IMG/VR virus record: IMGVR_UViG_2802429248_000002
DNA from: a virus
Lineage: Duplodnaviria > Heunggongvirae > Uroviricota > Caudoviricetes
Direction: 5' to 3' (one strand)
DNA length: 41,518 nucleotides
Shown: positions 35,020 to 36,122 of the stretch, in pieces
How the letters are laid out: every line of letters begins with the position of its first letter
Position numbering within the stretch: the first letter of the stretch is position 1
Program-made: the position numbers and the translations under genes
The notes under the pieces: generated by a model
Seen by the model: the letters and a program-made list of their open reading frames with translations, nothing else
Told to the model about the DNA's origin: nothing
Database searches by the model: none

Positions 35020-35250
35020 TCATGAGTAGAAGAAGTATGCCAGTTCTGCTTTTGAGCGCAGCCATTGTCTTGATTTACAGGCTTTAAAAAGCCCATCCAT
35101 CAATACCTTACCTGGCATTTTGCGCTTACCTGTTAAGTGAGTCTGGATATAGTGACTCGTCGTTCCGGCTTCCTGTGCGAAGGCTTCACGCTCATCCGGA
35201 GTAAGTGCAAGCCAGTGCTTTTTGAAATCGAAATGTCCGTTATCGCTCAT
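35020..35250 (-). CDS. Cro-like HTH DNA-binding protein (first gene of the leftward early operon)
   Basis: 76 aa; HTH-like segment FAQEAGTTSHYIQTHLTGKR; divergent from the repressor-like gene across an operator-rich 150-bp region. Confidence 0.45.
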   Translation of the reverse strand: MSDNGHFDFKKHWLALTPDEREAFAQEAGTTSHYIQTHLTGKRKMPGKVLMDGLFKACKSRQWLRSKAELAYFFYS

Positions 35251-35286
35251 AGCTATTGCCTGATATTTATTTCAGATAATAAATAT

Positions 35287-35349
35287 TCACCTATAAGGTA
35301 ACAAAAATCAAGGATAGTTACCCATGAGGTGCATTTACCTGTTGGGTAA
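35287..35349. promoter_or_regulatory. Immunity-region operator cluster: three sites (TCACCTATAAGGTAA 35287-35301; TTACCCATGAGGTGC 35318-35332; TTACCTGTTGGGTAA 35335-35349)
   Basis: Clustered palindromes in the divergent Cro-like/repressor intergenic region, analogous in layout to lambdoid tripartite operators. Confidence 0.55.
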
Positions 35350-35404
35350 TATTGCTTTAAATTGAATCATCTTCTGATTCAGATATGAGGCGATTTTCCA
35401 GAAA

Positions 35405-35989
35405 ATGAAAAGTATCCAGGACGTCCGCAGGCAAAATCTCAACGACTTGATCGACCGTGAATTCAATGGTGTTCAGACGCGGATGGCTGAAAAACTTGGA
35501 ACTCAGGCAAATCTGGTAAACCGCTGGGCTCTTGGCAAGAAGGTTATCGGCGACCAGGTTGCGCGAAAAATTGAAGCTGCCGCCAATAAACCCCGTAACT
35601 GGCTTGATATCGATCGCTCGCTTTCTCAGGAAGGTTTTCAGCCTGTCGGCCCGAGTGATATAGGTCAGCTGGCTGCTCACAACCTGGAACGCTGGATGAG
35701 CGAAAGCCGCGACCTTTCAACGCAGGGAAAACTACACCGCGCATCCGGCGTCGCCCAGGTGACAATCAGCCGCCTGTTAAACAATGAGGTCAGCGTTTCC
35801 ATTTCCACCCTGGAGAATGTTGCATCCGCATTCGGGCGTCATGGCTATGAATTACTGATTCACCCGCACGACCCTGCGACTATCAACTATGACCGCTCGC
35901 GCTACGCATTGTTACCCGAAACCGAGAAAGCAAAGATCGAAAGTTACATTGAATTTGTCATCAACCAGAACGAAAAAAACAAACAATAA
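35405..35989 (+). CDS. XRE-family repressor-like protein with two HTH motifs and no S24 autocleavage domain (putative immunity repressor)
   Basis: 194 aa; HTH 1 GVQTRMAEKLGTQANLVNRW, HTH 2 ASGVAQVTISRLLNNEVSVS; no GDSM/Ser-Lys peptidase signature; flanked by operator clusters on both sides; terminator immediately downstream. Confidence 0.55.
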   Translation: MKSIQDVRRQNLNDLIDREFNGVQTRMAEKLGTQANLVNRWALGKKVIGDQVARKIEAAANKPRNWLDIDRSLSQEGFQPVGPSDIGQLAAHNLERWMSESRDLSTQGKLHRASGVAQVTISRLLNNEVSVSISTLENVASAFGRHGYELLIHPHDPATINYDRSRYALLPETEKAKIESYIEFVINQNEKNKQ

Positions 35990-36010
35990 AATCATATTTT
36001 TCAGTAAGTA

Positions 36011-36034
36011 AGCCGCCTTCTGGCGGCTTTTTTA
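36011..36034 (+). terminator. Intrinsic terminator after the repressor-like gene
   Basis: AGCCGCC-TTCT-GGCGGCT hairpin followed by TTTTTTATT. Confidence 0.65.
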
Positions 36035-36046
36035 TTGCCTACTCGA

Positions 36047-36122
36047 TTACCTAACGGGTAATTTTTTAACTCATATCTATTGACATCAAACCAGATACGC
36101 ATAATTATTACCTCAACGGTAA
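36047..36122 (+). promoter_or_regulatory. Early-right promoter region: operator TTACCTAACGGGTAA (36047-36061), -35 TTGACA (36080-36085), AT-rich -10 (about 36102-36108), operator TTACCTCAACGGTAA (36108-36122)
   Basis: Consensus -35 with 16-17 bp spacer to TAATTA/AATTAT; second palindrome begins at the -10 and covers the predicted start site; first plus-strand ORF begins at 36142. Confidence 0.55.

Follow-up and report, generated by a model that had tools for sequence, protein, structure and literature searches.

Does the immunity region of this prophage depart from the lambda plan, or is it the lambda plan read from the other strand? The window (the whole 41,518-nucleotide stretch of viral DNA analysed here, IMG/VR record IMGVR_UViG_2802429248_000002) carries at positions 35,020 to 36,122 a leftward Cro-like gene and a rightward repressor gene. 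An earlier sequence-only reading had taken their arrangement for a non-lambda one, with the repressor co-oriented with the early-right operon and its mRNA possibly leaderless.

Identity of the Prophage and Layout of Its Immunity Region

The window is very probably an E. coli prophage of the phiV10/epsilon15 type (Uetakevirus), and the region studied here its primary immunity switch. Across the switch region it is 97–98% identical to phiV10 and its relatives, and we found this region in 540 of 5426 complete E. coli genomes (about 10%). The closest known system is the Rep/Ant antirepression switch of the Salmonella phage SPC32H (Kim and Ryu, J Virol, 2013; Kim et al., PNAS, 2016; PDB entries 5D50 and 5D4Z), together with the corresponding region of phiV10, epsilon15 and ZX5; the genus Uetakevirus and the gene order are common to these phages and the window. 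A sequence search of the window for the ZX5 attP core did not find it.

Table 1. Features bearing on the immunity switch, in window coordinates.
Feature	Position	Strand	Basis or remark
LexA box TACTGTATAAATATACAGTT	6290-6309		20 bp upstream of the ant ATG
Small antirepressor Ant, 85 aa	6329-6586	+	PDB 5D50_E "Anti-repressor protein", 1.9e-46
Second antirepressor module	7451-8418	+	Exact operator (7451-7465), then RNAs, then Bro-N gene
IsrK RNA	7502-7578		Rfam, 76.8 bits
C4 antisense RNA (RF01695)	7597-7683		Rfam, 79.5 bits vs gathering score 45
Bro-N antirepressor gene	probable start 7733, end 8418	+	Pfam Bro-N; homologue of phiV10p23
Operator at head operon start	24975-24989		Exact; upstream of the small gene preceding the portal gene
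Adjacent operator pair before terminase small-subunit gene	28530-28562	-	28548 exact, 28530 with 1 mismatch; 18 bp apart
Second operator-promoter-operator module	32942-33018	-	TTGATT-17-TTTAAT; upstream of DUF1064 gene
Lambda-P-family protein	33056-33856	-
DnaT/HTH_36 replication initiator (O-like)	33838-34653	-
66-aa gene	34669-34869	-
Predicted replication-operon promoter	34904-34932	-	TTGATC-17-CAAAAT; would drive the 66-aa, O-like and P-like genes
Sixth local operator, TTACCTTTGAGGTAC	34950-34964		1 mismatch; upstream of the replication-operon promoter
Terminator after Cro-like gene	34979-34998	-	Annotated in phiV10; stem conserved in five phages
Cro-like gene, 76 aa	35020-35250	-	ORF; homologues phiV10p41, epsilon15 gp39, SPC32H_042
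Predicted promoter of Cro-like gene (PR analogue)	35276-35311	-	Consensus scan, 9/12 matches
Operator O-a, TCACCTATAAGGTAA	35287-35301		1 mismatch
Operator O-b, TTACCCATGAGGTGC	35318-35332		2 mismatches; centre 31 bp from O-a and 17 bp from O-c
Candidate rep promoter (PRM analogue)	35334-35363	+	TTTACC-18-TAAATT, overlapped by O-c; predicted, weak consensus (4/6 + 4/6)
Operator O-c, TTACCTGTTGGGTAA	35335-35349		Exact
Repressor Rep, 194 aa	35405-35989	+	ORF
Rho-independent terminator after rep	36002-36037	+	Hairpin; annotated as terminator in phiV10
Operator OL-1	36047-36061		Exact; about 26 bp upstream of the -35
PL-analogue promoter	36080-36108	+	TTGACA(36080)-17-AATTAT(36108); consensus 10/12
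Operator OL-2	36108-36122		Exact
PL-operon genes	36142-38551	+	Starting with two small ORFs
PD-(D/E)XK exonuclease	36593-37414	+
RecT	37411-38292	+
AlpA/Xis-like gene	38342-38551	+
Integrase	40262-41518	-	Beyond PerC and methylase genes

The lambda immunity region is ordered PL/OL–rexBA–cI–PRM/OR/PR–cro–cII–O–P. The window has the same topology on the opposite strand, with the PL operon, OL, a terminator, rep, OR, the cro-like gene and the replication genes in that order (Table 1). The repressor and the Cro-like gene diverge from a multi-operator OR, as repressor and cro do across the three-operator OR of lambda; the repressor has OR on one side and OL on the other and points the same way as the recombination/xis operon; a terminator stands, again as in lambda, between the repressor and the operator-controlled promoter for recombination, excision and integration; and replication genes, one of the P family among them, follow the Cro-like gene as they follow cro. 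Since the recombination, excision and integrase genes are to the right of rep and the replication genes come after the Cro-like gene, this is a cI/OR/cro arrangement with its OL/PL, in reverse complement.

A truly non-lambda architecture would have the repressor at the head of, and co-oriented with, an early-right (replication/lytic) operon, and in window coordinates the repressor and the next operon do run in the same direction, with a two-operator promoter following the repressor. That operon, however, is lambda's PL module: it consists of exonuclease, RecT, AlpA/Xis-like, PerC and methylase genes and ends at an integrase on the opposite strand, and lambda cI is likewise co-oriented with the PL operon. 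The DnaT/HTH_36 and lambda P family genes are found downstream of the Cro-like gene instead, and in the GenBank orientation of phiV10 and epsilon15 the map reads as the standard lambda map. The non-lambda reading is thus already refuted by gene content, and we regard such an architecture as most improbable; the switch is a known one, sequenced and partly characterised, of a common prophage type, and the architectural novelty claimed for it is a labelling error.

Several features nevertheless separate the window from lambda. The window genes that were scanned gave no homologue of N, Q or cII; for N- or Q-type antiterminators the scan covered 27 gene products, most structural and lysis genes being outside it, and could miss remote homologues. 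The small genes flanking the switch, as regards an N-, Q- or cII-like function, matched only PHROGs of unknown function. Unlike in lambda, a terminator closes the Cro-like gene, and a conserved predicted promoter and an operator of its own precede the replication operon. About ten further operators are scattered through the genome.

The Repressor

The proposal that the 194-aa gene is the prophage repressor is supported: its product proved 100% identical to phiV10 Rep and to ORF21 of vB_EcoP_ZX5, which represses lytic genes. When ZX5 ORF21 was overexpressed, as a GST fusion and thus not in an immunity assay at physiological protein levels, the endolysin transcript fell by 99.99% and the holin transcript by 99.97%, and free phage was abolished (PMC9782041). 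In the PDB, the sole structural homologue of the window protein is SPC32H Rep (5D50_A, matched over residues 1-190 at 4e-42).

A Pfam scan of Rep recovered HTH families only, a YdaS-like HTH at residues 21-61 and HTH_3 at residues 106-147, and no Peptidase_S24 domain. This is the three-domain plan without a peptidase domain of SPC32H Rep; the lambda repressor, in contrast, carries an S24 autocleavage domain, and the family to which Rep belongs is inactivated by antirepressor (PMC9638917, PMC9986798). By analogy, the N-terminal HTH would bind DNA, the middle HTH_3-like domain would dimerise and the C-terminal domain would serve tetramerisation and Ant binding (roles as given in PMC9986798 and PMC9638917). 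The SPC32H protein is a tetramer that binds palindromic sites, and Ant disassembles this tetramer, releasing the DNA (PMC9638917, PMC9986798). One should bear in mind that overall identity between the window protein and SPC32H Rep is no more than 42% (53% in the N-terminal domain, 38% in the remainder, i.e., the C-terminal part), so that tetramerisation of the window protein and its sensitivity to Ant are extrapolations.

Operators across the Genome

The operator motif is a 15-bp palindrome, TTACC-N5-GGTAA (the operators of lambda have 17 bp), with about 15 intergenic sites across the prophage. At up to two mismatches the window holds 41 matches, against 11.5 ± 3.3 in shuffled sequences, and nine of its sites are exact, where simple arithmetic gives about 0.04 by chance; at up to one mismatch, shuffles lead one to expect about 0.4–0.75 sites per genome. 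Among all 5+5 palindromes with spacers of 2–9, this one is the most frequent in the window, in phiV10 and in SPC32H, and each of five related genomes has 8–10 or more exact sites. In phiV10, 12 of the 14 sites fall in the non-coding 6.5% of the genome (binomial P = 4.5e-13). Five phages, from four host genera, show no variation in the operators, in the −35 element of the promoter or in the distances between them, and the operator consensus and syntenic operator positions of SPC32H are the same as those of the window. A match at 3009 with one mismatch lies inside a gene and was set aside as a probable chance occurrence.

That these palindromes are operators of the repressor is supported by the epsilon15 GenBank record, matching sites being annotated there as "protein_bind: repressor, lysogeny". 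The operator pair before the terminase gene has syntenic sites in phiV10, SPC32H, Tyrion and epsilon15, the epsilon15 site being annotated as repressor-binding, and so is the epsilon15 equivalent of the head-operon operator (2931-2947). In the window, a TTGACA at about 24950 (+) was considered as a promoter for the tRNA and rejected, its spacing to any −10-like element being wrong.

Could the dispersed sites mainly be targets of the Cro-like protein or of some other regulator, such as the PerC-like activator or the PHROG-536 regulator, rather than of Rep? Five phages have identical half-sites, and conservation is much higher in the Cro-like protein (78% identity) than in the N-terminal domain of Rep (53%); besides, some sites precede late genes, which in lambda are not under direct repressor control. 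On the other hand, the three sites in the rep/cro interval and the two to three at OL occupy the classic positions of repressor sites, the N-terminal HTH of Rep keeps a conserved NLVNRW segment, the epsilon15 record names the repressor as the protein bound there, and SPC32H Rep reportedly binds palindromes in its tetrameric form (PMC9638917). Co-variation of repressor and operator across heteroimmune relatives, looked for to tell which protein binds, was not seen, as the five phages share the half-sites with Rep proteins only 42–78% identical. As operators shared by Rep and Cro are the norm, "both" is more likely than "instead": the Cro-like protein may well use the same sites as Rep, and we hold it improbable that Rep is not their main ligand.

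In P1 and P7, immunity involves the C1 repressor, with many dispersed operators, and immI with its c4 antisense RNA, icd and ant. As in the window, a single repressor motif is found there at many transcription units, late-gene regions included. P1 C1, however, binds asymmetric 17-bp sites as a monomer, whereas the window operators are symmetric palindromes; Rep, of the XRE type, belongs to the SPC32H family, and the PDB search, with SPC32H Rep as its only structural homologue, showed no homology to P1 C1; and the window prophage is integrated, while P1 is a plasmid.

OR, the Cro-like Gene and the Replication Side

The three operators announced between the Cro-like and repressor genes are there, at 35287, 35318 and 35335, in a 154-bp rep/cro spacer, and all three are conserved in five phages. 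O-b, the poorest match of the three, is at the position of an exact site in SPC32H and BUCT711, and the half-sites of O-a are conserved in the five phages around a variable centre. O-a is located between the −35 and the −10 of the predicted promoter of the Cro-like gene. The −10 of this promoter would be TATTAT (35276-35281) and its −35 either TTGTTA (35299-35304) or an invariant TTGATT (35306-35311), with transcription expected to start at about 35269 (−); the stretch AAAAATCAA (TTGATTTTT on the − strand) is invariant in the five phages at this place.

The product of the leftward gene deserves its label of Cro-like in so far as PHROG 35 ("transcriptional repressor", 8.7e-13) and the predicted fold both point to a Cro/C1-type HTH protein. 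Its AlphaFold model has five helices and a pLDDT of 84; the best Foldseek matches of the model are nearly all Cro/C1-type HTH proteins, among them the YdaS N-domain (TM 0.62), P22 c2 and the 434 repressor, at E-values of only about 1. The protein is 78% identical to its SPC32H homologue, with a nearly invariant putative recognition helix (TSHYIQTHLTG), and belongs to a narrow family whose members are all labelled "hypothetical"; no match was obtained in Pfam, nor in PDB sequences. A Cro function is therefore put forward from fold and position only and stays a prediction.

Beyond the terminator of the Cro-like gene, the predicted promoter of the replication operon shows GGTTGATCTTTTTT and AAAAT as invariant blocks in the five phages; its start would be at about 34897 (−). 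A second operator-promoter-operator module follows the replication genes, with exact operators at 32942 and 33004, i.e., 62 bp apart, on either side of its promoter.

Start of the Repressor Gene

The absence of an obvious Shine-Dalgarno sequence at the repressor start was borne out: the sole GAGG is 13 nt upstream of the ATG, and no Shine-Dalgarno sequence is well placed. The possibility raised from it, a leaderless mRNA with transcription starting at the A of the ATG (35405), is another matter. In its favour, lambda cI transcribed from PRM offers a precedent, and the 30 nt preceding the Rep ATG are poorly conserved among relatives. Yet the hexamer that would have to serve as −10, ending about 7 nt ahead of the ATG, is not −10-like (ATTTTC in the window, AATACA or AAAAAA in relatives), and the only conserved −10-like element, TAAATT (35358-35363), is 42–47 nt upstream. 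Moreover, Shine-Dalgarno sequences are also weak at the Cro-like gene and several other genes here, so a weak one at rep is not diagnostic. We thus find the leaderless mRNA unsupported and unlikely.

The candidate rep promoter of Table 1, to which that TAAATT belongs, would instead place the 5' end near 35370 and leave a leader some 35 nt long. The five-phage alignment shows no change there in TTTACCT and T-T-x-A-A-T-T; the consensus promoter scan gave no call for it. The best OR site, O-c, overlaps this promoter of the repressor itself and not the cro promoter, the reverse of the affinity order in lambda, and the logic of the switch may for this reason differ from the one that we propose below.

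Terminator, OL and the PL-Type Promoter

Downstream of the repressor, the elements read from the sequence alone all stood up to analysis, namely a strong terminator and two more operators around a consensus-like promoter. The terminator has a stem at 36010-36029 (8 bp, six GC pairs) followed by a T run, and its extended hairpin reaches −21.1 kcal/mol (z = −6.8 against shuffles); a strong U-tract terminator at this place is present in the phiV10/Tyrion lineage and not obvious in SPC32H. Unlike in lambda, OL consists of two sites, one on each side of the promoter and separated by 61 bp, where SPC32H, epsilon15 and BUCT711 have three. OL-2 starts at the last base of the −10 and covers the expected transcription start (about 36115).

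The second module after the replication genes aligns gap-free to the OL module in five phages. In the ten operator-promoter-operator modules thus aligned, the half-sites, the −35 element with its TATTGA and a spacing of 61–63 bp, mostly 62 bp, are invariant.

Antirepressors and Predicted SOS Input

SPC32H has a small Ant (~86 aa) encoded next to the tailspike gene and a LexA-binding site overlapping the ant promoter, and the window has counterparts of both: its ant gene is divergent from the adjoining tailspike gene (3377-6133) and preceded by a LexA box which, judging from its position, would overlap the ant promoter. A second CTGT-N8-ACAG (6219-6234) adjoins an operator at 6238-6252; the window contains five such boxes against 0.5 expected. 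The Ant of SPC32H reportedly differs in structure from the antirepressors known in Siphoviridae and Myoviridae phages.

The second antirepressor module sets the lineage of the window apart from SPC32H, which has no annotated gene there. Its IsrK and C4 RNAs both score above the Rfam gathering thresholds, and the C4 RNA is directly upstream of the Bro-N gene; likewise, in P1/P7 a C4-family RNA directly precedes an antirepressor gene with an operator in the promoter region. In ZX5, overexpression of ORF4, a Bro-N protein likened to this one by annotation and not by alignment, favoured lytic growth (PMC9782041).

With no peptidase domain in Rep, induction is predicted to proceed by antirepressor and not by self-cleavage. 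In Gifsy-type systems with non-cleavable repressors (Lemire et al., 2011, cited in PMC7380047), the SOS signal is relayed by a LexA-repressed antirepressor, as we predict here; the likeness is one of mechanism.

Proposed Control Logic

Homology, motif statistics, conservation and the published repression by an identical protein support the following switch model. Rep, as a non-cleavable repressor of the SPC32H family, would bind the TTACC-N5-GGTAA palindromes. With O-a inside the core of the leftward cro promoter, and O-b and O-c overlapping or abutting the weak rightward rep promoter, repression of cro and autoregulation of rep are predicted, provided that the operators are assigned to the right promoters. 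At OL, the strong PL-type promoter that serves the recombination/excision genes would be enclosed by the two operators, of which the first precedes the −35 and the second covers the transcription start. Operators, single or in pairs at 17–18 bp or 62 bp, would guard the remaining transcription units (the replication, DUF1064/nin-like, terminase and head operons, the ant/tailspike region and the Bro-N antirepressor), and Rep would silence the prophage directly, promoter by promoter, instead of via N/Q antitermination. In induction, LexA cleavage would derepress ant, the repressor itself staying uncleaved, and Ant would bind the C-terminal domain of Rep and break the tetramer off the DNA.

The geometry of the paired sites invites a further, tentative step, which we consider possible rather than probable. 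The operator-promoter-operator cassette, which 5/5 phages examined carry both at OL and behind the replication genes, has its palindrome centres 61–63 bp apart (mostly 62), about six helical turns. It may act as a promoter clamp in which a single Rep tetramer would bridge the operator pair, held by its two trans-paired DNA-binding dimers; such cassettes or single operators at every operon would replace N/Q, and two antirepressor inputs would converge on the same repressor, one through the LexA-controlled Ant, the other through the Bro-N antirepressor gated by the IsrK and C4 RNAs. As individual sites, the operators are annotated in the epsilon15 record already; the fixed 62-bp geometry and the dual antirepressor input were not found in the literature accessible to us. 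If true, the clamp would give the "trans" DNA-binding model published for SPC32H Rep a concrete counterpart in the architecture of promoters. More generally, a lambda-like gene order can mask another control logic, which here would be that of a non-cleavable tetrameric repressor, induction driven by antirepressors and direct repression of each operon.

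Identity of the Prophage

Sequence identity of the region is 97-98% with Escherichia phage phiV10 and the related phages phiv142-3, PAS61, and vB_EcoP_ZX5 (ZX5), 95% with TL-2011b, and about 78% with Enterobacter phage Tyrion; phiV10 is collinear with the whole window in reversed orientation, and, of 5426 complete E. coli genomes, 540 carry the 1.1-kb immunity region. Taken together, these comparisons identify the window, at the sequence level, as a Uetakevirus (epsilon15-like) prophage. Its flank at 1-1226 is unlike phiV10 (Table). A search of the whole window did not find the attP core of ZX5, phiV10, and epsilon15 (attgagtgggaatgatt), so the integration site may differ from theirs. 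The tRNA-Arg gene overlaps a minus-strand ORF (25318-25590) that is the positional counterpart of the annotated phiV10p04.

Layout of the Immunity Region

Every feature that the sequence-only reading had listed here (Cro-like gene, operators, repressor gene, terminator, promoter) is present in the sequence. Its claim of a non-lambda layout is a labelling error: as gene content and GenBank orientation indicate, a PL-type operon was mistaken for an "early-right" operon. Going rightward from the repressor, two small ORFs are followed by genes for a PD-(D/E)XK exonuclease, RecT, an AlpA/Xis-like protein, a PerC-like activator, a methylase, and the integrase; going leftward past the Cro-like gene, the order is a 66-aa gene, genes for a DnaT/HTH_36 replication initiator and a lambda-P-family protein, nin-region-like genes, and terminase. 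In lambda, cI sits between OR and OL, shares its direction of transcription with the PL operon (recombination, xis, int), and diverges from cro, which lies ahead of O and P. The window shows the same arrangement in reverse complement, and the GenBank records of phiV10, epsilon15, and Salmonella phage SPC32H are oriented so that the minus strand encodes the repressor and the plus strand the Cro-like protein. A novel architecture finds no support here. One difference from lambda is that the Cro-like gene forms a short transcription unit by itself, since a terminator, an operator, and the predicted promoter of the replication operon come after it.

Features of the prophage, in window positions (operators, TTACC-N5-GGTAA)
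Feature	Position	Strand	Details
TraT/glycine-zipper lipoprotein gene	1-516		
DUF5384 protein gene	532-1074		
LexA-box-like CTGT-N8-ACAG	6219-6234		ant/tailspike divergent spacer
Operator	6238-6252		exact or 1 mismatch; ant/tailspike spacer
LexA-box-like CTGT-N8-ACAG	6292-6307		ant/tailspike divergent spacer
Operator	7358-7372		exact; immediately upstream of start of inserted 242-aa ORF
Operator	7451-7465		exact; upstream of Bro-N antirepressor operon
IsrK-family Hfq-binding RNA	7502-7578	+	76.8 bits
C4 antisense RNA	7597-7683	+	79.5 bits
Bro-N antirepressor gene	7733 (probable start)	+	after C4 RNA
Operator	24975		exact or 1 mismatch; upstream of small gene preceding portal gene
tRNA-Arg, anticodon TCT	25312-25388	+	strand opposite to late genes
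Operator	25592		exact or 1 mismatch; upstream of plus-strand accessory ORF
Operators	28530, 28548		exact or 1 mismatch; upstream of terminase small-subunit gene
76-aa Cro-like ORF	35020-35250	-	leftward
Operator O-a	35287		1 mismatch
Operator O-b	35318		2 mismatches
Operator O-c	35335		exact
194-aa repressor ORF (rep)	35405-35989	+	rightward
Hairpin and T run after rep	36010-36029 (stem)		
Operator (OL)	36047		exact
Operator (OL)	36108		exact

Repressor and Cro-like Protein

Pfam places an HTH_3 domain at residues 106-147 of the repressor (Rep) and a weaker YdaS-type HTH at 21-61, with no Pfam match to an S24 peptidase domain. Rep matches the SPC32H repressor (PDB 5D50_A) at 4e-42 across residues 1-190, with 53% identity over the N-terminal 73 residues and 38% over the remainder. 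According to published descriptions (PMC9638917; PMC9986798), SPC32H Rep has an N-terminal DNA-binding, a middle dimerisation, and a C-terminal tetramerisation and antirepressor-binding domain; a Rep tetramer occupies palindromic DNA, its DNA-binding domains pairing between one dimer and the other, and tetrameric Ant takes it off DNA by splitting it into dimers. Rep is, moreover, 100% identical to ZX5 ORF21, whose overexpression lowered endolysin transcripts by 99.99% and holin transcripts by 99.97% and abolished free phage (PMC9782041). Published results for an identical protein, together with a solved homologue, support the earlier assignment of the 194-aa gene as the repressor. That reading was to fall if the cloned gene gave no immunity, a question that ORF21 largely answers: lytic transcripts and free phage were lost, though upon GST-fusion overexpression and not in a physiological immunity assay (PMC9782041). 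The whole is an already known system, the Uetakevirus Rep/Ant switch.

The Cro-like protein has neither a Pfam nor a PDB sequence match and matches PHROG 35 "transcriptional repressor" (8.7e-13). Its AlphaFold model (19 homologues; pLDDT 84) is a five-helix bundle; almost all of its top Foldseek matches belong to Cro/C1-type HTH domains, including the YdaS N-domain (TM 0.62), P22 c2, 434 repressor, and restriction-modification controller proteins, and their E-values lie near 1, a usual outcome for a domain of this small size. Between phiV10-type and SPC32H-type phages, it is 78% identical and better kept than Rep. By predicted fold and position, it is a putative lytic-side regulator.

Operators and Promoters around rep

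The 154-bp rep/cro spacer holds three 15-bp palindromes, TTACC-N5-GGTAA (the OR trio). Exact copies number nine in the window against about 0.04 expected (our own arithmetic, 10 specified bases), and 41 sites match with at most two mismatches, versus 11.5 ± 3.3 in shuffles; in a count of 5+5 palindromes that took in all spacers from 2 to 9, this one was the commonest in the window, phiV10, and SPC32H alike. The motif is beyond chance.

We aligned the rep/cro spacers of the window, phiV10, Tyrion, SPC32H, and Klebsiella phage BUCT711: all six OR half-sites are conserved, operator centres vary, and AAAAATCAA, TTTACCT, and T-T-x-A-A-T-T are invariant. Read on the minus strand, AAAAATCAA gives TTGATT, a -35-like hexamer for the predicted cro promoter, with O-a placed between it and the -10 region TATTAT (35276-35281). 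A weak rightward candidate rep promoter, TTTACC-18-TAAATT, is covered by O-c and would put O-b about -45 and O-a about -76 from the rep start; such a promoter would imply rep autoregulation via the best-matching OR site.

The sequence-only reading was right to see no obvious Shine-Dalgarno sequence at rep, because a GAGG lying 13 nt ahead of the ATG (-5.6 kcal/mol) provides the sole anti-SD complementarity there and the final 30 nt are not conserved among relatives; most neighbouring genes have an anti-SD site 4-8 nt upstream. A leaderless mRNA starting at 35405 would agree with this, but there is no -10-like hexamer where such a start would require one and, from the conserved TAAATT, the expected leader would be some 35 nt long; leaderless transcription is unsupported and, in our estimation, quite unlikely. 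At the 3' end of the Cro-like gene, a weak promoter-like match aimed at rep (TCTACA-16-TATCAT, 34996-35023, plus strand) has the position expected of a PRE-like establishment promoter and a match strength at chance level; no cII-like gene was found.

After rep, the extended hairpin (36002-37) reaches -21.1 kcal/mol (z = -6.8), and between the OL operators lies the region's best promoter match (TTGACA-17-AATTAT, 10/12). In all five phages, OL aligns gap-free with a second segment (32942-33018, minus strand) located after the replication-gene terminator, with TTACC, GGTAA, TATTGA (-35), ATTACC, and GGTAA invariant. The order is operator, 16 nt, TATTGAC/T, 17-nt spacer, -10, and second operator, into which the final bases (AT) of the -10 merge directly; the distance between operator centres is always 61-63 bp. 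The two operators noted earlier around a promoter are therefore a conserved cassette that each genome employs two or more times. Past the Cro-like gene, a related arrangement comprises a conserved terminator, an operator at 34950 (1 mismatch), and the predicted replication-operon promoter, whose TTGATC-17-(C/A)AAAAT is invariant. We found no description of the fixed 62-bp spacing of paired operators in the accessible literature; this geometry is a modest lead that leaves the identity of the finding unchanged.

Antirepressors and Predicted Induction

The 85-aa ORF at 6329-6586 (ant) matches SPC32H Ant (5D50_E) at 1.9e-46. A near-consensus LexA box, TACTGTATAAATATACAGTT, lies 20 bp upstream of its ATG, with a second CTGT-N8-ACAG 73 bp further upstream; the latter abuts a repressor operator, which suggests joint control of ant by LexA and Rep. 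In the predicted induction, LexA cleavage would be followed by Ant synthesis, and this by Rep release.

A second antirepressor module occupies 7451-8418 (plus strand); its operator/IsrK/C4/Bro-N arrangement resembles P1 immI (c4-ant), and SPC32H has no gene annotated at this position. The accessible literature yielded no description of a LexA-controlled Ant together with an IsrK/C4-gated Bro-N antirepressor, and the pair is, likewise, a modest lead that does not alter what the system is. Relative to phiV10, the window has an insertion between ant and the module, a 242-aa ORF (6609-7337, minus strand; PHROG 6762) with zinc-finger/endonuclease-VII-like repeats at its C-terminal end.

Operators across the Genome

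phiV10, SPC32H, Tyrion, BUCT711, and epsilon15 have operators at places corresponding to those in the Table; in phiV10, 12 of the 14 sites fall inside the non-coding 6.5% of the genome (P = 4.5e-13), the other two lying within the 5' end of the terminase ORF, which is probably over-extended. The epsilon15 GenBank record labels matching positions 'protein_bind: repressor, lysogeny' (terminase upstream, gp3 upstream, ant/tailspike spacer, three OL sites, post-replication site), and these are the motif matches found here; dispersed operators are, per this current annotation, already known.

The terminase small-subunit ORF, as mechanically called (27898-28608, minus strand), runs over both of its operators, as does the phiV10p01 annotation (phiV10 41-715); since the annotated starts in SPC32H, epsilon15, and Tyrion lie downstream of the operators, the phiV10 start is probably placed too far upstream. 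The gene at 28649-28996 (minus strand), the last before a terminator, the operator pair, and terminase, holds the position of lambda Q; it matches PHROG 536 'transcriptional regulator' (5.5e-54), with no Pfam or PDB match, and its product is a candidate for regulating the late genes. Between the tRNA and the terminase large-subunit gene sits a 272-aa accessory ORF (25592-26429, plus strand; PHROG 4780, function unknown) that is absent from phiV10 and preceded by TTACCTTAAAGGTATAAT, the operator variant upstream of the phiV10 integrase gene, where Tyrion and epsilon15 have the near-identical TTACCCTAAAGGTAT. Beside several operators, a (C)ATATGTGGTT motif recurs (6170-6215, 24890-24960, 32960-32975, 34930-34945), followed by GGTAATAG upstream of the tailspike and head operons alike; a common promoter element is one possible reading, a site for a second regulator another.

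Among the gene products scanned, none matched an N or Q antiterminator family. Together with the dispersed operators, this suggests direct repression of each operon by Rep, a mode closer to that of P1 C1 than to that of lambda cI.
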